Origin: an uncultured Spirochaetota bacterium
GTDB taxonomy: Bacteria > Spirochaetota > Spirochaetia > SZUA-6 > Fen-1364
Reading direction: 5' to 3'
Length of the DNA: 64,000 nucleotides
NCBI GenBank assembly: GCA_963781885.1
Contig: CAWAHW010000002.1
Span: 1,280,001 to 1,344,000, forward strand
The translations under genes were made by a program, and so were the position numbers. Shown here piece by piece: positions 52,229-63,810 of the stretch. Numbering within the stretch: the first letter of the stretch is position 1; each line of letters starts with the position of its first letter. The notes beneath the pieces were generated by a model. The model did not search any database. It was not told the origin of the DNA and saw nothing but the letters and a program-made list of their open reading frames with translations.

Positions 52229-52258
52229 CTTGGCGTTGACGTGCTCTTTCGGACCCGC

Positions 52259-52624
52259 ATGAAGCTCAGGATTCTCGATTACATCGCGATTGCCCTCTGT
52301 CTGCTGGTTATCGGTGGATTCTCTCTGTATGCCTACGCCGGAAGGAGCAGCGGGGGAGACGTCGTCATAGAGGCGTCCGGCTCGCAGTGGATTTATCCCC
52401 TGTCGACGGACAGACGGGAGGCGATCAAGGGCCCCCTGGGCGATACGATCGTCGTCATCAAGGCGGGCAAGGCGTTCGTTGAAGACTCCCCCTGTCCCGA
52501 CAAGCTGTGCGTGCACATGCCGGCAATCTCGAAGCCGGGGCAATGGATCGCCTGCCTGCCGAATCGAGTCTTCGTTCGCGTCCGGGGTTCCAGTGGCCAG
52601 GAAATCGACGATCTCTCTTACTAA
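52259..52624 (+). CDS. NusG domain II-like (DUF1312) membrane-anchored protein, EetA-like
   Basis: TM helix, GPLG, SPCPDKLCV, IACLPNRV. Confidence 0.85.
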   Translation: MKLRILDYIAIALCLLVIGGFSLYAYAGRSSGGDVVIEASGSQWIYPLSTDRREAIKGPLGDTIVVIKAGKAFVEDSPCPDKLCVHMPAISKPGQWIACLPNRVFVRVRGSSGQEIDDLSY

Positions 52625-53148
52625 CCGGTTGGATCTCGTTGCCTTCATGGGGGCGATCTGTCTTTTTCTCTCCGCGATCGAATACATGATACCCAAGCCG
52701 ATCCCTTTCCTGCGGGTCGGCATCGCGAATGTGCCGATCCTCCTCTGTCTTGACATCCTGCCCGGTGCCGCTCCTGCTCCTCGTGGTGGTTCTCAAGGTG
52801 ATCGGCCAGGGGCTGATCGGCGGCACGCTCATCTCCTACGTGTTCCTGTTTTCCGCGGTCGGCTCATTTGCAAGCGCGCTCTCCATGCTCCTGTTCCGTC
52901 GGCTCTTTTCCACGCGCATCACCCTGGTCGGCGTGGGTGTGCTCGGCGCGCTCTTCAGCAACATCACGCAGATCCTGCTCGCGCGTGTCCTGATATTCGG
53001 GGAAGGCGCGTGGCTCATCGCGCCGCCCTTCCTTGCGCTGGGGACGGTCACGGCGACCCTCCTGGGTTTTTTTGCAGAGAGGTTCGCCGCCCGCTCCCGC
53101 TGGCTCGTCTCGGTGCGGAGCAGGGTCGCCGCTTCGAAGGCATCGTAA
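52593..53148 (+). CDS. Gx-transporter/heptaprenyl diphosphate synthase component I family membrane protein, EetB-like; frameshifted near 52762
   Basis: LSAIEYMIPKP.PFLRVGIAN, then GVGVLGALFSNITQ in the shifted frame. Confidence 0.82.
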
Positions 53149-53789
53149 TGGCGCGGCGGCAACAGGGCTCCTCGCTCCTTCAGCAGAACGCCTCTGCCCG
53201 CGTTCTTTTTCTCACCGGCGCCCTCCTCTTTCCCTCCTTCCTCCTCCAGCAGGACATCGCGATACGCGCCGCGCAGATCCTTCTTTTCCTTCTTCTCAAT
53301 CTGCTGAGCGGAAGGAGAATCAGGTTTCTGCAATACCTCGTCGTCAGCGCGGGCATCGTCATCTTCAACCTCGTGATCCCCACGGGCCGCGTGCTCGTTT
53401 CCCTGCTCGGTCTGGCCGTGACGGAAGGGGCGCTGAAGAGCGGGCTTCTGAAAGCCACGGCCATGACGGGGCTCATCGCGCTCTCCCAGTTCTCCATCCG
53501 CGGGGAGCTTCGATTCCCCGGTCGCGTCGGCGGACTGGTCGGACGATCGCTGTTCTATTTCGAGCGCATCATGGGAGGCCGGAAGAAGATCGACCGCAAG
53601 GACATCATCGGGAGCGTCGACGCCCTCCTGTTGGAGGTCCAGGCTGCGGGTCCGGCGCTCGCCGGCGAGACAGAAGACCCCGTGCCCACGACCCTGGCGG
53701 GCTACTCCATCCTCCTGCTGAGCGTCGTGGCGTGCTGGGGAGCATACGCCTTCACGCTCATGCACCCGCATCCGATCTGGGGCGGCTGA
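53148..53789 (+). CDS. Hypothetical integral membrane protein
   Basis: ATG overlaps upstream TAA; several TM segments; FNL..P.GRVL motif reminiscent of ECF T components. Confidence 0.65.
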   Translation: MARRQQGSSLLQQNASARVLFLTGALLFPSFLLQQDIAIRAAQILLFLLLNLLSGRRIRFLQYLVVSAGIVIFNLVIPTGRVLVSLLGLAVTEGALKSGLLKATAMTGLIALSQFSIRGELRFPGRVGGLVGRSLFYFERIMGGRKKIDRKDIIGSVDALLLEVQAAGPALAGETEDPVPTTLAGYSILLLSVVACWGAYAFTLMHPHPIWGG

Positions 53790-53844
53790 GCGGGGCGGCC
53801 CGCGCCGATTGTCCCGCAAGCCCCGTTTTGCTACGCTCCGTGCC

Positions 53845-54762
53845 GTGATTCGTGAGCTCGTCACAAATGTCGTGCGATTCGGTTTCGACTTCCGCTCGTG
53901 GCGGGCCGGCTTCAAGGCGTTGCGGGCACCCTCGCTCGTCATTGCGGCTTTTTCGTGCGCGCTGGGCATTGTACTTGCCTTCCACGATGGGCGCGGGGAC
54001 CTCCTGAATGCCGCGGCCGTCCTGGTCACGGGTCTGCTCCTCCAGGCGGGAGTCAATCTCGTCAACGACTTCTTTGAGTTCCGCCAGCGCCGTGTCGATG
54101 ACAAGGTCCATGCTCTTGGTTTTTCCCCGAAGGACCGGGACCTGCTGGAGATCTACATCTTCCTCGTCGGCCTCGCGCTCTTCGGCCTTGCGGGCCTTTT
54201 CGGACTTTTCCTGGCGTGGAGGGTGGGGTGGCCCATCATCGTACTGGGCGCATTCGGTTTCATGACGGGATTCTTCTACACGGGTGAGCCCCTGAACTAT
54301 AAAAGAAGGGGTCTCGCGGTCCCGCTGGTTTTTTTCATCATGGGTGTGCCGATGATCGCAGGCTCGTACTATGCCGTTGCCCGTACCCTCACCGCGGGTG
54401 CCGTCTTTGCATCGATCCCGGTCAGCTTCCTCATTTCCCTCATCCTGCTTGCCAATGAGCTTCGCGACTACGAATCGGACGTGCGCTACGGCATCCGCAC
54501 GCTGACGGTGCGCATCGGCTACAACAGGGGAATCGTCCTGTTCTGCATCCTGCTTTTCTGCGCGTATGCGAGCCCGATCGTGCTCTGGCTGTGCGGGGCC
54601 ATTCCCTTTCTCTGGCTGTTTTACGTTGCGCTGCCATTCATCGTGCCGCCTTTTCTCTTCATATGGAGACCGCCGGAGAAGCGTCACCCCCTCATTCCGC
54701 TCGTGATGCTCCACCACCTTGCATACGGCGTCCTGTACTGCGTGGCGTTTTTCATGCGATAA
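53845..54762 (+). CDS. UbiA/MenA-family prenyltransferase (DmkA-like); start uncertain (53809-53872)
   Basis: NLVNDFFE, YTGEP, LLANELRDYESD...TL; TTGTCC-17 bp-TACGCT at 53809-53837 favours a later start. Confidence 0.88.
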   Translation: MIRELVTNVVRFGFDFRSWRAGFKALRAPSLVIAAFSCALGIVLAFHDGRGDLLNAAAVLVTGLLLQAGVNLVNDFFEFRQRRVDDKVHALGFSPKDRDLLEIYIFLVGLALFGLAGLFGLFLAWRVGWPIIVLGAFGFMTGFFYTGEPLNYKRRGLAVPLVFFIMGVPMIAGSYYAVARTLTAGAVFASIPVSFLISLILLANELRDYESDVRYGIRTLTVRIGYNRGIVLFCILLFCAYASPIVLWLCGAIPFLWLFYVALPFIVPPFLFIWRPPEKRHPLIPLVMLHHLAYGVLYCVAFFMR

Positions 54763-56452: not shown

Positions 56453-57201
56453 GCCGGGCCGTGCGCGGCGGCATCCTTGGCGTCGTGGCGCTCACGGCGC
56501 TTTGGTGGGCGCTCTCCCTGGTCATTGCCGGCGGCTTTCTCCCGTCGCCGATCGTCGTCGTGCCCCGTCTTCTCTTCCTGTTGCCGCGCGGTCTCCTGAT
56601 TCACGTCGCGGCGAGCCTCGGGCGCATCGGGGTCGCGCTCGGCGTCTCTATCGTCACCGCCGTGCCGGCGGGTCTTGCAATCGGACGGAGCAAAGTGCTC
56701 GACCGGCTCTTCTCTCCCATCGCCTACCTCCTTTACCCGGTGCCCAAGATCGCGCTCCTGCCGGTCATCATGCTCCTCTTCGGGCTCGGGAACGTGTCGA
56801 AGGTGGTGATCGTCTTTCTCGTGCTCTTCTTCCAGGTGCTCGTCGCCACGCGAGATGCGGCCCACCAGATACCCGCGCAGTACCTGCTTTCCCTCCGATC
56901 GCTCGGGGGAACGCGCATGCAGGCGGCGCGCTACGTCCTCCTGCCCGCCTTGCTGCCTTCCCTCCTGTCTTCGCTGCGCATCGGCACGGGCACGGCGCTT
57001 GCCGTGCTCTTTTTCGCGGAGACGTTCGGCACCAGCCGGGGCCTTGGCTGGTTCGTGATGGAGAGTTGGATGCGCATGTCGTACGTCGACATGTTCGCCG
57101 GCATCCTCTGTCTCGGCGTCGTCGGCCTGGGCATATTCCTTGCCATCGATGCGCTCTACCGGCGTCTCTGTCGATGGCAGGTGGCCGCCCGCGCTACTTG
57201 A
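56449..57201 (+). CDS. ABC transporter permease (NitT/TauT-like)
   Basis: LPSP, PVPKIALLP, LPALLPSLLSSLR, AETFG. Confidence 0.9.
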   Translation: MSRAVRGGILGVVALTALWWALSLVIAGGFLPSPIVVVPRLLFLLPRGLLIHVAASLGRIGVALGVSIVTAVPAGLAIGRSKVLDRLFSPIAYLLYPVPKIALLPVIMLLFGLGNVSKVVIVFLVLFFQVLVATRDAAHQIPAQYLLSLRSLGGTRMQAARYVLLPALLPSLLSSLRIGTGTALAVLFFAETFGTSRGLGWFVMESWMRMSYVDMFAGILCLGVVGLGIFLAIDALYRRLCRWQVAARAT

Positions 57202-58231
57202 GCACCGTGTAGCCTGTGTCGGTGAGCGTGAATCGAGACCGCAGCCCCGGGGTCACATAGATCTCCTTGTTCTCCGTGATGAAGACCGCTTCGATCGTGC
57301 CCGACCTGGATTCTACGAACTTGCGGCCCTCATCCAGGCCCAGGGTGAAGACAAGCGTGTCGTAGCCGTCCGCGGTGAGGGAATCCGGCGCGAGTATGGC
57401 GACGGCCGAAAGCCCGTTCCACGCCGGGAAACCCGTGCGCGCATCGAGGATGTGGAAATAGCGCTTGCCGTTCTGCTCGAAGAAGCGCTCGTAGGTGCCC
57501 GCGGTCGTGACCGAGCCGCCCGTGATGTCGACATAGCCGATCATCGTGCCGCGCGCTTCGAGGGGATTCTGGATCCCGATGCGCCATGGCGCGCGGTCGG
57601 GCTTGGTGCCCATGACAAGGACGTTGCCGCCCAGGTCCACCAGCGCGGAGCTCACGCCGTTGGCGCGCAGGATGCGCACCACCTCGTCTGCGGCGTAGCC
57701 TTTCGCCACCGAGCCGAGGTCGATCCCCATGCCGGGCTTTTTGAGGAACACCGTGGAGTTTTTCTCATCCAGCACGACGTCGCGGTAGTTGATGAGCCGG
57801 ATGGCCGCTTTTATCTCCTTGTCGCCGGGGATGCGCGCCGCCGGAGTCCCGATGCCCCAGAGCTGGACCAGCGGCGCGACCGTGATGTCGAAGGCGCCGT
57901 TTCCGTCCGCGGAATAGCGAAGACCGTTGGCGATCACGTCGAAAACATCCGGGGTCACCTTGACCGGGCGGAACCCGGCGGCCTTGTTGACCTCGATGAG
58001 CTCGCTGTCGGGCTTGTTGATCGTCATGCGCGCTTCGATCTCCGCCAGGCGCGCGAAAGCCTTGTCGAGCACCGCCTCGGAGCCCCCCGCGTAGAGCCGG
58101 ATGAGGCAGGTCGTGCCCAGCAGGTTGTATTCCGTTCGCTCTAGGGGCGGAGCGGCCCACGCGGCCAGAGAAGCAAAAAAAACAAGCGCGGCGGCTGAAA
58201 GCCCCCGCGCGCGATGGATCGAAAATGTCAT
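57194..58231 (-). CDS. apbE: FAD:protein FMN transferase (ApbE/Ftp/FmnB)
   Basis: GAFDITV.PL..LWG, DLGSVAKGYAAD, DLGGN, GTYERF, HILD..TG.P, AD...T. Confidence 0.93.
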   Translation of the reverse strand: MTFSIHRARGLSAAALVFFASLAAWAAPPLERTEYNLLGTTCLIRLYAGGSEAVLDKAFARLAEIEARMTINKPDSELIEVNKAAGFRPVKVTPDVFDVIANGLRYSADGNGAFDITVAPLVQLWGIGTPAARIPGDKEIKAAIRLINYRDVVLDEKNSTVFLKKPGMGIDLGSVAKGYAADEVVRILRANGVSSALVDLGGNVLVMGTKPDRAPWRIGIQNPLEARGTMIGYVDITGGSVTTAGTYERFFEQNGKRYFHILDARTGFPAWNGLSAVAILAPDSLTADGYDTLVFTLGLDEGRKFVESRSGTIEAVFITENKEIYVTPGLRSRFTLTDTGYTVLK

Positions 58232-58309: not shown

Positions 58310-58333
58310 GTGTGGATTCCTGAGGGGAGAATT

Positions 58334-60451
58334 ATGCCAGACACGATTCGCATCGCCGTGCTTGGTGGCGGGTACGGCGGCGTGGAGGCTGCCAAAGTGC
58401 TCGAGCGCAGGCTCGGCGGACGCAGCAATATAGAGATCAGTCTCATCGACCGAAACTCCTATCACACCCTGATGACCGAGCTCCACGAGGTCGCCGGGGG
58501 CAGGGTCGAGCCGGAGTCCGTGCAGATCAGCTTCCGCAAGATATTTGGCGCCCGCCGCGTCAGGCTGGTGACGGACCGCATCCGCACGATCGATTTCGAA
58601 AAGCGGGTCATGATTTCCGACCTTGCGCAGTATCCCTACGATTACCTGGTCATCGGCGCGGGCGGCGAGCCCGAGTACTACGGCATTCCCGGCATCAAGG
58701 AGAACTCCTTCTCCCTGTGGTCATTCGATGACGCGATGCGGATCCGGCGGCACATCGAAGACCTCTATCGGCGCGCGTCCGCGGAACCGGACCCCGTGCG
58801 GCGGTCGGAGATGCTCACATTCGTCGTGGCGGGTGCCGGCTTCACGGGCATCGAGCTCGCCGGCGAGCTGATGGATCAGCGCCGCGTGATGTGCCGGCAG
58901 TACCTCATCGACGAGAAGGACGTGAAGATCATCGTCGTGGAAGCGCTGGATGCGATCATCCCCAACCTCCCCGGGAAGCTGCAGGCGCGCGCGCGCCAGT
59001 ACCTGGAGCGGCGCGGCATCCAGTTCATGCTCCATTCCCCCATCGTCGGCGCGGAGGCCGGCAAGGTGCTGCTCGGTGGCGGCGTGTCGGTCGCCACGCA
59101 GACGTTCATCTGGACGTGCGGCATCCAGGGCTGCGAGTTCGCGGGCAATCTCGCCCTCACCAAGGGGAAGTGCTCCAACAGGCTCTGCCGCTTCGCCACG
59201 ACGCAGGGGACCTGCGGGGTCAAGGACTGCACGTTCTCCAAGGATCGCTATATCGAGGGGAAGCGGGGAAGGCTCCTCACCAACGAGTACATGCAGTCGG
59301 TGGACTACAACAACGTCTACGTCGTGGGCGACGTCGCGTGGTACGTCGAAGGCAAGAAGGTCATGCCGCAGATCGTGGAATCCGCCGTGCAGACGGCGGA
59401 AACAGCCGCGCACAACATCATCGCCGACATCGACCATGAGGCGATGAAGACGTTCACGTCCAACTATCACGGCATCATGGTGTCGCTGGGCACCTACGCG
59501 GGCGTCGCGCACGTCATGGGCATTTCCCTGACGCGCATCTTCGCCATCGCGGTGAAGCACATGATCAACGTCGTGCACCTCTTCGGCGTCGCCGGGGTGA
59601 ACCAGGTCTGGGAATACGTGAAGCACGAGTTCCTCGACGTGAAGAACGCGCGCTCGTTCATTGGCGGTCTTGCCTCTTACAAGATACGCGGCTACTGGCC
59701 GCTCCTCCTGCGCATGTGGCTGGGTTTCATGTGGGTGGTGGAAGCGACGAACAAGATCACCCAGGGCTGGCTGGACTTCTCCTCGGGCCAGAGCAAGACG
59801 GGCTGGATGTTCTCCAACGGCGTCGTGCAGGCCGGGATCAAGGCCGCGGATGCCACCAGCTCCGCGTCGGTCTCCGCCGCTGCGGGCGCGGCCGCCGCAC
59901 CCGCCGTGGCAGCCGCGACCTCTGCCGCCTCCCAGGCCGCCAGCGCGGCACCGGCAGTCGCGGCAGCCGCAGCCGATGCGACCTCGGCCGCCTCCCAGGC
60001 GGCCAGTGCGGCGCCGGCCGCTGTCGCCGTTGCCCACACCGCGGCGCCCGGACCGTGGATGGATACGACAAAGACCATCCTGGACCCCCAGTCCGGCGTC
60101 GTGACGTGGTTCCGTCACTGGTTCATGGACGGCATCTTCTCCCACGTCGCCTACAGCTGGTTCCAGGTCATCATCGTCATGACGGAGCTGCTCGTCGGGC
60201 TTGCGCTTTTCGGCGGCTTCTTCACCTGGTGGGCCGCTCTCGTGTCGCTCGGGCTCTGCGTGATCTTCACGTTCTCCGGCATGTTCGCCTGGAACCAGCT
60301 CTGGTTCTTCTTCGCCGCCATCCTCATGCTCGGCGGAGTGGGCAGGGCATTCGGGATCGATTCCTGGACCGTGCCTTTCTTCAAGAGGTGGTGGAACGGG
60401 ACACGATTCGCGCGGCGGACGAGATTCTATGCCGATGGGCCTTCAAAGTAG
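58334..60451 (+). CDS. Type II NADH dehydrogenase fused to a C-terminal DoxX-like membrane domain (Listeria Ndh2-like architecture)
   Basis: GGGYGG, LHEVAGG, YDYLVIG, GAGFTGIELAGEL, VGD; C-terminal LRMWLG..W...K, ELLVGLAL.GG, G.GRAFGID. Confidence 0.88.
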   Translation: MPDTIRIAVLGGGYGGVEAAKVLERRLGGRSNIEISLIDRNSYHTLMTELHEVAGGRVEPESVQISFRKIFGARRVRLVTDRIRTIDFEKRVMISDLAQYPYDYLVIGAGGEPEYYGIPGIKENSFSLWSFDDAMRIRRHIEDLYRRASAEPDPVRRSEMLTFVVAGAGFTGIELAGELMDQRRVMCRQYLIDEKDVKIIVVEALDAIIPNLPGKLQARARQYLERRGIQFMLHSPIVGAEAGKVLLGGGVSVATQTFIWTCGIQGCEFAGNLALTKGKCSNRLCRFATTQGTCGVKDCTFSKDRYIEGKRGRLLTNEYMQSVDYNNVYVVGDVAWYVEGKKVMPQIVESAVQTAETAAHNIIADIDHEAMKTFTSNYHGIMVSLGTYAGVAHVMGISLTRIFAIAVKHMINVVHLFGVAGVNQVWEYVKHEFLDVKNARSFIGGLASYKIRGYWPLLLRMWLGFMWVVEATNKITQGWLDFSSGQSKTGWMFSNGVVQAGIKAADATSSASVSAAAGAAAAPAVAAATSAASQAASAAPAVAAAAADATSAASQAASAAPAAVAVAHTAAPGPWMDTTKTILDPQSGVVTWFRHWFMDGIFSHVAYSWFQVIIVMTELLVGLALFGGFFTWWAALVSLGLCVIFTFSGMFAWNQLWFFFAAILMLGGVGRAFGIDSWTVPFFKRWWNGTRFARRTRFYADGPSK

Positions 60452-60454
60452 GGC

Positions 60455-61420
60455 ATGAAGTCCTTCTGGGACGGGCAGCCGGAAATCTCCCGCGATCTTG
60501 AATGCGTGCGGGAAACCATCGCGCGCTGCGCGGCCACGGAAGACGCCGACGTCCACGCCGCGATCGGCCAGCTGCTCTCAACCAGCGGCAAGATGCTGCG
60601 GCCCGCCTTCGTCCTGCTTGCGTCGCGCTTCGGCGCCCCTGACCGGGAGCGGATCATCCGCATCGGCGCGGCGGTGGAAATGCTCCACATGGCCACACTC
60701 GTTCACGACGACATCATCGACGGGGCGAAGCTCCGCCGCGGCGTGGCCACCCTGAACGCGTCGAACGGCCCGCGCACGGCCGTGCTGGTGGGCGACTGGC
60801 TTTTCGCTTCCTGCTTCAGCCTGATCGCGGACATCGCCCGCACGGAAAATGCCCGCGCCCTTTCCCACATGGTGGCCCGAATCTGCGCCGGGGAGATCGG
60901 GCAGTCCGCCGACAGGTTCACCGTCCACACGAGCAAGCGACGCTACCTGCGGCGCATCACGGGCAAGACCGCCGCCCTTTTTTCCCTCTCCCTCTACGTC
61001 GGCGCGGTGGAAAGCGGCTGCACAGAGGCGGTGCAAGGCATCCTCCGCAGGCTGGGATTCTGCGTGGGCATGTGCTTCCAGATCGTGGACGACATCCTCG
61101 ATTTCTCGCCGGGCGCATCGGAAATCGGCAAGCCCGCGGGCAGCGACCTCCTCCAGGGGGTGCTCACCCTGCCGACAATACTTGCGCTGCGTGCGGACGA
61201 CGGCAGCCTGGCGAGCCTCATTGGCAGGGGACCCCTGTCCCGGCGGGCGGCGGCGCGCGCCGGGCGGATGGTTGTCGCCCTTGGCGGCATCGAAGCTGCC
61301 CGTTGTGAGGCGGAAGCTTATACGCGCCGCGCCGAACGGGAGATCCAGCGGCTTCCACCGTCAGAGGCCCGGGATATCCTGGGCGAGGTGACGGCAAGGC
61401 TCCTGAACCGTACGTGGTAG
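60455..61420 (+). CDS. Polyprenyl (heptaprenyl) diphosphate synthase, HepT/DmkB-like
   Basis: GKMLRP, HDDIID...RRG, GKTA, FQIVDDILD, GKP.GSDL. Confidence 0.92.
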   Translation: MKSFWDGQPEISRDLECVRETIARCAATEDADVHAAIGQLLSTSGKMLRPAFVLLASRFGAPDRERIIRIGAAVEMLHMATLVHDDIIDGAKLRRGVATLNASNGPRTAVLVGDWLFASCFSLIADIARTENARALSHMVARICAGEIGQSADRFTVHTSKRRYLRRITGKTAALFSLSLYVGAVESGCTEAVQGILRRLGFCVGMCFQIVDDILDFSPGASEIGKPAGSDLLQGVLTLPTILALRADDGSLASLIGRGPLSRRAAARAGRMVVALGGIEAARCEAEAYTRRAEREIQRLPPSEARDILGEVTARLLNRTW

Positions 61421-61525: not shown

Positions 61526-62050
61526 ATGAAAAGAAGAGTGCTTGCAATCGCGATCGTTCTGATTCTCTGCGTCACCGTCGGTTCGTTTGCCGCCGAGAAG
61601 AAAAGCTCCACCATTCCCTGGTGGGTCACCTACGGCGGGACGGATGTCGCCGTTGGCGTCGGCTATACCCAGGATCTTTTCGGAGCCTCGGCTGCTCTGA
61701 ATCTCACATTCGGACAGTTCGACATCGGTCCGATCCCCCTGTCATGGGGAGGCACGGTCGGCGGCGAATTCGGCTTCGGCTATGGGCTCGGACTCGGCGT
61801 GGGTGCATTCGTCACGCTGGAAACAGGATGGGACTTCGGCAGCATCTGGAAGTTCGAGTGGAGGGTCGGGATCGGCCCCGCTATCGCACTTGACCTTGGG
61901 GGCGGCTTCGGGATCGGGTTTGGCCAGTATGCATCCTGGACCTGGTGGTTCACGGATGCCTTTGGACTCACTGCCCAGGATATGTGGTCATATACCTTCG
62001 GCACCGCCGACATGTCGGCATACACCATCGGGGTGGAGTTGAAGCTGTAG
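61526..62050 (+). CDS. Small exported Gly/aromatic-rich protein, probable small outer-membrane beta-barrel
   Basis: Signal peptide, alternating beta strands, ends IGVELKL. Confidence 0.72.
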   Translation: MKRRVLAIAIVLILCVTVGSFAAEKKSSTIPWWVTYGGTDVAVGVGYTQDLFGASAALNLTFGQFDIGPIPLSWGGTVGGEFGFGYGLGLGVGAFVTLETGWDFGSIWKFEWRVGIGPAIALDLGGGFGIGFGQYASWTWWFTDAFGLTAQDMWSYTFGTADMSAYTIGVELKL

Positions 62051-62313: not shown

Positions 62314-63810
62314 GTGATATCGTCGCGGGCTGTGCACCTTCAGATCGAAAAGCTCTGCTTCTCCTATCCTGCGCTGTCGGGAGAGCCGGGTCCGCTCGTC
62401 CTTGATGGCCTCAATTTTGGCGCGGCGCAAGGGGAGCTCGCCGTCATACTCGGTGCAGCGGACGCGGGCAAGACAACCCTTGCCCGCATCGTCGGCGGCT
62501 TCGTGCCGCGATTCAGCGGGGGAAGGCTGGCCGGATCGCTGCGCATCGCCGGAACGGAAATCCTCGGCACGCCGCCCTACGAGCTCATGGAGCGCGTCGG
62601 GGTGGTGTCACAGGACTCCGACGAGCAGCTCATCACCACGCGCTGCGACACCGAGGTGGCCTTTGCGCTAGAGTCGCTCGGCATGCCCCGGGAGCAGATG
62701 CGGGAGCGGGTGGAGTCGTCCCTTGCCCGGTTCGGCCTCACGGAGTTTCGAAGCCGTAATCCTTCGACGCTCTCCGGCGGGGAGAAGAAGCGCCTGCTCT
62801 TTGCCTGCCTGGACGCCATCGGTCCAGAGATATGGCTGCTCGACGATTCACTCGGAGAGCTGGACCAGGGATGGAAGGCACGGATACTCGCCCTTCTCGC
62901 GGAAGCGGGCAGGACCGTGATCGTATTCGATGCCCGATTGCCGGAGCATGCCGTCGGCCGCGCGCAGAGCTACGCGCTCCTGGAGGATGGCCGCATTGCC
63001 GCCCGGGCTGCACAGGTCGACGAGCCCGGCTTCCCGGAAGCCCTTGCCGCTGCGGGCATCACGCCCCGAGCATCCGCGTCCATTCAAATCCGGCCCACCC
63101 CGCATCCGGTCCTTCAGGCAGAAGGGGTCCGGTTCAGCTTTGCCGGCCCCGACGGATTTTCCCTCCAGATAGAATCTCTCTGTCTGAACGGCGGCGAGGT
63201 ATGCGCCCTTGCGGGCCGGAACGGATCGGGCAAGTCGACATTGGGCAGGATCCTGTGCGGCCTTCTGATGCCGCAGGCAGGCGCGTTCACCCTTGAGACG
63301 GGGAAGGGCAGGCGGCAGGCGGACGCGGACGATCTTTCCGCTTCCATCGGCTACCTTTTTCAGAATCCCGATCACCAGATCTACCTCCCGACCATCCGCG
63401 AAGAGCTCTCACTCGGGCTCCAGCGTCGGGGCCTGGCCCGCGGTGAGATTGAAAACCTGGTCGCCGATGCTGTCGCGCTCTTCCGCCTCCCCGATGCCGG
63501 CACGCCGCCTGCCCTGATGAGCTATGGCGCGCGCAAGAGGTTGCAGGCAGCGACCTATTACCTTCTGGACCGTGCCCTCCTCATCCTCGACGAGGTCGAC
63601 GCCGGCCTCTCCAGCAGGGAAGTGGAGGCGCTCATCGATTCACTCGGGCGACGCGGCGCCGGCATCCTCCTCATCACCCACGACCTGGCCCTGGCACGCG
63701 GCATGGCGGACAGGGTGCTGGCGATGGACCGGGGCAGGATCGTCGCGGACCTGCCGGCCGGTCAGCTTGCCCGGCTCCCGTCGCTGCTCGAAGAGGCGGT
63801 CGGCGCATGA
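62314..63810 (+). CDS. ECF transporter duplicated ATPase (two fused NBDs); start uncertain
   Basis: GAADAGKTT, EVAFALE, LSGGE; GRNGSGKST, FQNPDHQ, ILDE, ITHD. Confidence 0.88.
   Translation: MISSRAVHLQIEKLCFSYPALSGEPGPLVLDGLNFGAAQGELAVILGAADAGKTTLARIVGGFVPRFSGGRLAGSLRIAGTEILGTPPYELMERVGVVSQDSDEQLITTRCDTEVAFALESLGMPREQMRERVESSLARFGLTEFRSRNPSTLSGGEKKRLLFACLDAIGPEIWLLDDSLGELDQGWKARILALLAEAGRTVIVFDARLPEHAVGRAQSYALLEDGRIAARAAQVDEPGFPEALAAAGITPRASASIQIRPTPHPVLQAEGVRFSFAGPDGFSLQIESLCLNGGEVCALAGRNGSGKSTLGRILCGLLMPQAGAFTLETGKGRRQADADDLSASIGYLFQNPDHQIYLPTIREELSLGLQRRGLARGEIENLVADAVALFRLPDAGTPPALMSYGARKRLQAATYYLLDRALLILDEVDAGLSSREVEALIDSLGRRGAGILLITHDLALARGMADRVLAMDRGRIVADLPAGQLARLPSLLEEAVGA

Follow-up and report, generated by a model that had tools for sequence, protein, structure and literature searches.

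Introduction

The closest described system to the locus analyzed here is the extracellular electron transfer (EET) locus of Listeria monocytogenes, which comprises Ndh2, PplA, FmnB/ApbE, FmnA, EetA, EetB, DmkA, and DmkB. Our subject is a gene encoding an NADH dehydrogenase of the NDH-2 type fused to a DoxX-like membrane domain (the ndh2::doxX-like gene), located in a stretch of 64,000 nucleotides from an uncultured Spirochaetota bacterium (contig CAWAHW010000002.1, positions 1,280,001 to 1,344,000; hereafter the window, meaning the whole stretch analyzed), and in particular three short motifs in a loop of the membrane domain that resemble the sites at which ApbE attaches flavin mononucleotide (FMN). 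We consider it probable that these motifs are ApbE flavinylation sites and that the enzyme passes electrons from NADH via quinone to its own periplasmic flavins.

The available text of Meheust 2021 defines an EET system as a flavinylation (apbE) cluster with a transmembrane-bearing NADH dehydrogenase, a definition that would place the spirochete locus among the Listeria-type EET systems. The two loci are alike in their membrane-anchored NDH-2, in the ApbE of the window, whose closest solved relative is Listeria FmnB (7esa, E 7.7e-85; next family 1.8e-51), and in the presence of a UbiA prenyltransferase, a polyprenyl synthase, parts of a transporter of the energy-coupling factor (ECF) type, and an eetB-like gene (PF07456) in one neighborhood. 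They differ in that the spirochete window has no PplA-like FMN_bind gene and no EetA was identified, in that the candidate flavin sites lie on the dehydrogenase itself, and in that the host is a diderm spirochete, so the flavins would be periplasmic.

The presence of several ApbE sites on one extracytosolic polypeptide, as proposed for the candidate sites of this protein, is also a property of the multi-flavinylated proteins described in the available portions of Meheust 2021 and Huang 2024, for which a long-distance electron relay has been proposed and whose models resemble 'beads on a string' (PMC11334425). However, each site of a multi-flavinylated protein lies in a folded FMN-bind domain of ~120–160 aa, whereas the spirochete protein gave no PF04205 (FMN-bind) match over its 713 aa at E ≤ 0.01, more than two such domains being needed for the multi-flavinylated class, and its sites are spaced by 12–25 aa along a disordered, Ala-rich arm belonging to an integral membrane enzyme. 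The substrates recorded in the available text of Meheust 2021 are FMN-bind, DUF2271, and DUF3570, with some ApbE substrates remaining unidentified, while Huang 2024 adds Flavodoxin_4 and FMN reductase (PMC11334425). Closer to the membrane, ApbE also flavinylates NqrB and RnfD, integral membrane proteins from redox complexes linked to NADH or ferredoxin (PMC11334425), although they have the PF03116 fold, a single site each, and a role as subunits of multi-protein ion pumps, in contrast to the single-chain NDH-2 fusion considered here. The engineered Flavin-tag offers a further parallel, since ApbE flavinylates an isolated 7-residue motif placed terminally or within a surface loop (Tong et al. 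2021, via PMC12052999), and because this labeling proceeds without a flavin-binding fold, a disordered loop can be an ApbE substrate. The tag carries the canonical D-x-x-S-G-A-T, whereas the spirochete array is natural, has mostly Ala at the Gly position, and would use Ser as the putative acceptor.

Members of the DoxX/DoxD family are small quinone-associated membrane proteins, and DoxD in particular has been linked to quinone. The C-terminal domain of the spirochete protein resembles this family in its predicted four-helix membrane bundle, with NACHO/TMEM35A as the solved look-alike, and differs from it in being fused to NDH-2 and in having a long loop inserted between its first and second transmembrane helices (TM1 and TM2).

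Results

The ndh2::doxX-like gene (58310..60451, + strand) corresponds to a 713-aa open reading frame (ORF) starting from a GTG at 58310, and translation could just as plausibly begin at the ATG at 58334 (MPDTIRIAVLGGGYGG). Pfam matches on this ORF included Pyr_redox_2 (E 1.3e-30), Pyr_redox (E 1.1e-9), and DoxX (E 0.007), and the matched stretches delimit a cytoplasmic NDH-2 domain binding flavin adenine dinucleotide (FAD) and NADH at 58334..59464 on the + strand (approximately residues 9–385). The DoxX label is weak for the query, as its match to PF07681 at residues 608–655 reaches 17.4 bits against a gathering cut-off of 23.6 bits, and it is stronger for the relatives, which have precomputed PF07681/PF04173 matches. 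No curated NCBIfam model was found over the C-terminal domain. With an NDH-2 domain preceding a transmembrane domain at the C-terminus, according to Pfam and an AlphaFold2 (AF2) model, the protein has the domain order of a Listeria-type Ndh2, and the best explanation of the product is an electron-export type NADH dehydrogenase that joins NDH-2 to a DoxX/DoxD-like membrane domain of four helices.

The initial annotation of this DNA had pointed to three candidate flavinylation motifs at an exact 21-aa spacing between membrane helices of the C-terminal domain. The motifs were recovered in the 58310..60451 ORF at 59849, 59912, and 59975, that is, 63 nt (21 aa) apart, and in the AF2 model they fall in the TM1-TM2 loop. 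Motif 1 is DATSSAS (59849..59869, + strand, residues 514–520) and represents the positionally conserved first site, motif 2 is AATSAAS (59912..59932, + strand, residues 535–541), and motif 3 is DATSAAS (59975..59995, + strand, residues 556–562). Motifs 1 and 3 read D-x-x-S-x-A-S, with Ser or Ala replacing Gly, and motif 2 is devoid of the leading Asp. The regular spacing holds in the query and did not extend to the family, in which successive sites of 120 homologues are mostly 12–25 residues apart. Moreover, the identities among the 63-nt units are 57, 73, and 56%, only units 2 and 3 resembling a duplication, and Tandem Repeats Finder called no 63-nt period. Considering the unit identities, the lack of a called period, and the variable distances in the homologues, the exact 21-aa spacing is incidental and is attributed to coincidence together with a local duplication involving units 2 and 3, not to a conserved design.

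When the query loop was subjected to 5000 composition-preserving shuffles, the pattern [DE]xx[ST][GAS]A[ST] was found twice in the real sequence vs. a mean of 0.03 in the shuffled ones (P 0.0002), and the bare core [ST][GA]A[ST] was not significant in this Ala-rich loop (2 vs. 0.79, P 0.18). The latter result would fit a loop that is an Ala/Ser/Thr-rich flexible periplasmic spacer carrying no flavin, in which the xATSAAS words arose from duplication and composition and perhaps serve a structural purpose, for example by capping a helix or contacting the membrane domain. Such a spacer would also agree with the 73% identity of units 2 and 3, taken as a recent 63-nt duplication, with the predicted disorder of the arm, with loop lengths ranging from 40 to 185 aa, and with an apbE adjacency that is not conserved. 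Nonetheless, we consider this explanation, the main alternative to flavinylation, unlikely in view of the distribution of the motif across the family.

A search with the C-terminal domain found 270 homologues, of which the best 120 were listed, their named sources being Spirochaetia, Rectinemataceae, or Spirochaetales; one sequence (P0096) was omitted from the loop counts because its loop looks frameshifted. The loops of these 120 homologues contained 195 instances of [DE]xx[ST][GAS]A[ST], against 4.9 ± 2.2 in shuffles (maximum 13), an excess of about 40-fold that a spacer shaped by composition does not account for, and at least one strict motif was present in 100 of them. Loop length varied from 68 to 185 aa in this group and loop composition was also variable, so that the core of the motif is kept while the linker changes, the favorable outcome of a check that the initial annotation had suggested. 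The consensus of 401 motif instances was [A/D/E]-A-[T/A/V]-S-[A/G]-A-[S/T], with Ala at position 2 in 88% of the instances, whereas positions 6 (Ala) and 7 (S/T) are fixed by the search pattern and hence uninformative.

Additional sampling gave a similar picture. The domain was present in 16 of 401 genomes sampled from the phylum, and a genome_contigs scan returned 194 relatives, the best 80 of which all belong to Spirochaetota. In a pooled second set of 95 sequences (the query, 15 genome loci, and 79 genome_contigs loci), the relaxed motif occurred in 94, the strict motif in 78, and the canonical [ST]GA[ST] in 10, and the sole sequence without the relaxed motif (L059) is a 115-aa fragment. 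The first site aligned in all 16 members of a diverse alignment at 32–60% identity, a positional conservation that also argues against a mere spacer, and the counterparts of motif 1 in these relatives include DAVSAAS, EATSAAS, DASSGAS, and DSVTAAT. Besides, the motif is retained in Ala-poor loops, as in L039 (AVTGAS, DASSGAS, AVTSAS, and DAVSSAS), L041 (DSVTAAT), L045 (EEVSGATSAT), P0178 (DATTGAS), and P0153 (DGTSGAS), and therefore it is not an effect of composition. Some family members have fully canonical sites, namely DAVTGAT, DGTSGAS, and DATTGAS.

The NDH-2 part of the same proteins served as an internal control. The strict motif occurred zero times in the first 380 residues of 138 (109 + 29) family proteins vs. 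203 times (175 + 28) in their loops, which again weighs against a spacer of no particular function; this comparison omitted proteins shorter than 540 aa, three frameshift-like ones, and those failing the TM1 pattern, and its loop limits are approximate, so that the sites in P0216 and P0252 were missed. A reversed pattern was also tried as a negative control and set aside as uninformative, because SAAS reads the same both ways.

A profile search of 1.84 billion representatives returned 408 proteins at E ≤ 0.001, and the strict motif was found within the last 300 residues of 22 of the 36 full-length distant representatives listed. The named members from this search are Bacillota (Clostridiales, Halanaerobiales, and 'Firmicutes bacterium'), confirming that relatives of the C-terminal domain exist in that phylum, and when one of the Bacillota relatives was used as the seed of a search, the proteins returned were all from Halanaerobiales. 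The Halanaerobiales clade, which includes Orenia metallireducens, has a short loop with [VI]SGAS in 21 of the 22 sequences listed, the 22nd being listed only up to a point before the site, and the occurrence of an invariant [VI]SGAS in short, ordered loops is again difficult to reconcile with a flexible spacer.

These Halanaerobiales proteins (P0300–P0321, from Orenia metallireducens and Halobacteroides halobius among others) are NDH-2::DoxD/DoxX fusions of 586–602 aa with an invariant L[VI]SGASS.LWS in the short TM1-TM2 loop. Judged from its sequence, L[VI]SGASS.LWS is a candidate for a single flavinylation site with a canonical core, in a clade that includes a species named for metal reduction. 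Many sites of the family are followed by E/D-W within two or three residues. In more distant spirochete relatives (e.g., L031, L055, and L067) the residues (G/A/E)(E/D/A)W come after every site, an example being EAVSAASGEWAEP, and the conserved Trp two to three residues past the putative acceptor Ser could stack on a flavin.

The topology of the C-terminal domain was examined with an AF2 model of residues 441–713 built from a 79-row alignment (mean pLDDT, the predicted value of the local distance difference test, 77.8; predicted template modeling score, pTM, 0.69). TM1 spans 59693..59761 on the + strand (residues 462–484; helix 22–44 of model m009ed3a91f6e, pLDDT ~90–96), and TM2-TM4 of the DoxX-like four-helix bundle span 60152..60331 on the + strand (residues 615–674; helices 175–195, 199–215, and 221–234 of the model, pLDDT >90), TM2 being residues 615–635. 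Between them lies the predicted extracytoplasmic TM1-TM2 loop (59762..60151, + strand, residues 485–614), delimited by the pLDDT profile, the charges, and the alignments. The loop starts with an ordered and highly conserved segment (residues 485–511 in the model and the alignments), continues with a helix that holds motif 1 (residues 512–527, pLDDT 50–65) and a disordered Ala-rich arm that holds motifs 2 and 3 (residues 526–570, pLDDT <50), and ends in an ordered segment. The bundle is followed by a positively charged cytoplasmic tail (60332..60448, + strand, residues 675–713). There are four Lys + Arg in the 21 residues before TM1 and eight in the 39-residue tail, while the 130-residue loop has four Lys + Arg and six Asp + Glu. 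Because a single helix separates the NADH-using domain from the loop, and given these flanking charges, an extracytoplasmic location is predicted for the loop, and the topology check of its assignment to the periplasm, based on helix count, charges, and the AF2 model, was favorable.

Structural comparison of the domain gave NACHO/TMEM35A (9h9e_C) as the best match of an exhaustive structural aligner (Z 9.6, root-mean-square deviation 3.6, 116 aligned residues), a score to be read with caution because Z below ~13 is common for helical bundles, with gamma-glutamyl carboxylase at Z 6.7 in the same search. Foldseek vs. the PDB returned nothing at E ≤ 0.001 with the model of the domain, its best row being VKOR at E 3.8, and the Atlas neighbors of the domain were DoxX clusters at a score of 0.84, which is taken as a lead only.

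The sites of the loop were then considered as substrates of ApbE. The published motif is D-x-x-[S/T]-G-A-[S/T], and seven residues suffice outside any FMN-binding fold, a surface loop working with lower yield (PMC12052999). According to the same source (PMC12052999), replacing D by A changes little, flavinylation of ~50% is left after G to A or A to V, and a decrease of 10–55% is given for T to S. DATSAAS accordingly departs from the consensus just at positions reported to be tolerant. The compartments also correspond, as the predicted extracytoplasmic loop matches a predicted secreted ApbE with a signal-peptide-like N-terminus.

A complex was predicted for ApbE residues 28–345 (9-row alignment), FAD, Mg, and loop residues 500–575 (79-row alignment). 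The interface score ipSAE was 0.87, 0.87, and 0.85, against 0.00 for the best of three controls, and the calibration, in which 58 of 80 solved complexes and two of 110 mismatched pairs reach the mark, is only rough for this case, with its custom alignments and included ligands. The pLDDT of the partner was ~40 and the runs agreed in at least 69% of the contacts. The predicted interface comprises residues 553–566 of the loop, that is, motif 3, and on ApbE it includes the invariant residues 201–203, 216–221, and 243–249; motif 3 is thus predicted to dock into ApbE. In the PDB entries that match ApbE the transferase alone is named, with no sign of a solved enzyme-substrate complex, though one could exist, and the FmnB paper reported that PplA crystals were hard to obtain.

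The docking also bears on the possibility that the conserved Ser/Thr residues undergo another extracytoplasmic modification (O-glycosylation or phosphorylation) or make a non-covalent contact, ApbE being uninvolved. O-glycosylation of Ala/Ser-rich low-complexity regions is known from other bacteria, the loop, predicted to lie outside the cytoplasm, has a low-complexity sequence rich in Ser/Thr and Ala, and its deviations from the canonical Gly and Thr could point to recognition by a different enzyme. On the other hand, the conserved positions (Ala 2, Ala 6, Ser/Thr 7, and Asp/Glu 1) are those of the ApbE motif, family members have the fully canonical DAVTGAT, DGTSGAS, DATTGAS, and [VI]SGAS, the model places motif 3 in ApbE, and the locus contains apbE and flavin transport genes, with no glycosyltransferase seen in the annotated stretch. 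We therefore regard a modification unrelated to ApbE as highly improbable.

The apbE gene (FAD:protein FMN transferase; 57194..58231, - strand; PF02424 E 4.8e-88) is the divergent neighbor of the ndh2 gene, in agreement with the initial annotation. Downstream of ndh2, a DmkB-like polyprenyl diphosphate synthase (60455..61420, + strand; PF00348 E 3.9e-58) adjoins it, the two genes being adjacent in all family loci of both sets (15 of 15 and 74 of 74), and farther on lies the fused double ABC ATPase of an ECF transporter (62314..63810, + strand; ABC_tran x2). Just past the end of the window there are an EcfT (CbiQ, L008:1807-2577) and then a riboflavin-type S component (L008:2630-3163; PF07155 E 8.7e-31). 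ECF flavin exporters colocalizing with apbE serve flavinylation in Listeria (PMC9973259), and the ECF genes are adjacent only in the closest relatives. Upstream, the window contains a DmkA/MenA-like prenyltransferase of the UbiA family (53809..54762, + strand; PF01040 E 1.7e-24), an eetB-like gene (PF07456; 52647..53148, + strand) whose reading frame is split in two, and an NMT1-type ABC transporter. Overall, ubiA, the polyprenyl synthase, apbE, the A, T, and S components of the ECF transporter, and the eetB-like gene cluster as in a Listeria-type locus.

Neither the window nor the next 12 kb contains an FMN_bind (PplA-like) gene, the four matches of the genome all being elsewhere. The lack of such a gene in the locus fits the idea that the loop replaces PplA, which is weakened by the FMN_bind proteins encoded elsewhere in the genome. 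These proteins use the canonical DFISGAT, DDVSGAT, and DAVSGAT, which makes the loop sites a distinct variant. A second ApbE of the genome (outside the window, at G000:C5:176210-177159; L001, L006, and L007) adjoins a small secreted FMN_bind protein with DFISGAT, an arrangement that we count in favor of flavinylation of the loop. ApbE was present in 15 of 15 other genomes with the domain, and this co-occurrence was rejected as support, considering that all of these genomes also have FMN_bind and NqrB/RnfD genes.

Some further observations on the neighborhood were made. The eetB-like frame is split near 52,745-52,770, with profile positions 1–41 in the ORF at 52479-53789 and positions 44–146 in the ORF at 52729-53148, and a frameshift, an error in the assembly, or pseudogene status may explain the split. 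A NusG_II domain gene (52241-52624, + strand; E 1e-23) lies directly upstream of it and a 216-aa hydrophobic ORF with no family match (53139-53789, + strand) directly downstream. Between the polyprenyl synthase and the ECF genes there is a secreted-looking, Gly/aromatic-rich protein of 174 aa (61526..62050, + strand) with a signal-peptide-like start and no Pfam or NCBIfam match, which occupies the same place in seven close relatives (L046, L047, L049, L053, L054, L059, and L111) and may be a small outer-membrane barrel. In the family loci L031-L124, a gene of the MntP family (putative manganese efflux pump) is found beside the pair formed by ndh2 and the polyprenyl synthase in 28 loci, and the UbiA prenyltransferase recurs in 14 loci.

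Discussion

The motifs, their conservation, the predicted topology, and the neighborhood described above are the basis from which we infer the attachment of flavin, the acceptor residues, and the path of the electrons. According to the proposed mechanism, the periplasmic ApbE encoded next door would use FAD brought to it by the locus's own flavin-type ECF transporter and would esterify FMN to Ser520, Ser541, and Ser562, all three loop sites being flavinylated at the last Ser of each D/A-A-T-S-S/A-A-S. NADH would reduce the FAD of the NDH-2 domain, and the reduced FAD would in turn deliver electrons to a (demethyl)menaquinone-like quinone made with the neighboring polyprenyl synthase and UbiA enzyme. 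The quinol would then be re-oxidized at the DoxX-like domain by loop FMN, while further FMNs on the disordered arm would pass the electrons to periplasmic acceptors, so that the loop flavins would do the job of the flavinylated lipoprotein PplA in Listeria.

Several points weigh against this proposal. The midpoint potential of a solvent-exposed FMN should lie well below that of demethylmenaquinone, and the transfer from quinol to FMN would be uphill unless pulled by acceptors. For one multi-flavinylated protein, -184 mV has been quoted (PMC12052999). The stretch that holds motifs 2 and 3 is disordered (pLDDT <50) and has no flavin-binding fold, and the natural ApbE substrates so far described in the available text of Huang 2024 (PMC11334425) are folded domains. 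Among the 401 spirochete instances of the motif, position 5 is Ala in 84% and Gly in just 14%, and the leading Asp/Glu is present in 43%, with Ala there in 41%, while the FMN_bind proteins of the same genome carry the canonical SGAT, unlike the loop sites. Moreover, five of the 36 full-length distant representatives listed have no motif at all. Among the other family loci, some of which have short upstream flanks, apbE is adjacent in only 4 of 15 and 5 of 74 (9 of 89), and the FMN_bind and NqrB/RnfD genes found in all 16 genomes checked make the presence of ApbE unspecific. In addition, the docking score is the model's own confidence and may reflect learned recognition of the motif.

Even with the sites flavinylated, the enzyme might not export electrons. 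The loop flavins could take in electrons from periplasmic donors for the quinone pool, act in redox sensing, or tune or stabilize a quinone site of the DoxX-like domain, in which case PplA would not be replaced. The direction of flow is unreadable from sequence, the available text of Meheust 2021 notes possible reversed flow in flavinylated systems, and the genome has FMN_bind proteins elsewhere, all of which would fit such a role, as would the unfavorable thermodynamics of the step from quinol to free FMN. However, the locus mirrors the export locus of Listeria and the NADH-oxidizing domain, being part of the same polypeptide, speaks for outward flow, so we find a function other than export distinctly unlikely, although somewhat less so than a modification in which ApbE has no part.

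A full-text literature search, with supplements not covered, found no publication in which flavinylation motifs are described for Ndh2 or for a DoxX domain; files 1 and 2 in the supplement of Meheust 2021 consist of gene cluster lists, in which such loci might occur. The main text of Meheust 2021, as available, contains no mention of Ndh2, NDH-2, or DoxX, and the terms transmembrane, Listeria, flavinyl, and 'clade D' do not occur in the preprint on NDH-2 evolution (bioRxiv 10.1101/2025.10.14.682086).

The route of electrons from the quinone pool to extracytosolic flavins in flavin-based export is not settled; EetA proved dispensable and EetB a flavin exporter subunit (PMC9973259). Extending the proposal to the whole family, it is possible, though in our view somewhat doubtful, that the first outward loop of NDH-2::DoxX/DoxD proteins is an unrecognized class of ApbE substrate in Spirochaetota and Bacillota, in which FMN links quinol to extracytosolic flavins and in which multiplication of the site in spirochetes has produced a tethered multi-flavin arm (2–11 sites) that makes a PplA-like carrier unnecessary. 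If true, a natural ApbE substrate devoid of a fold would be added to the six substrate classes of Meheust 2021 and Huang 2024, as far as the available portions of these sources go. The same reading predicts a single conserved site in the Bacillota relatives, including the Orenia metallireducens clade, and a flavin on the dehydrogenase's own outward loop would supply the missing step between quinone pool and extracytosolic flavins in one polypeptide.

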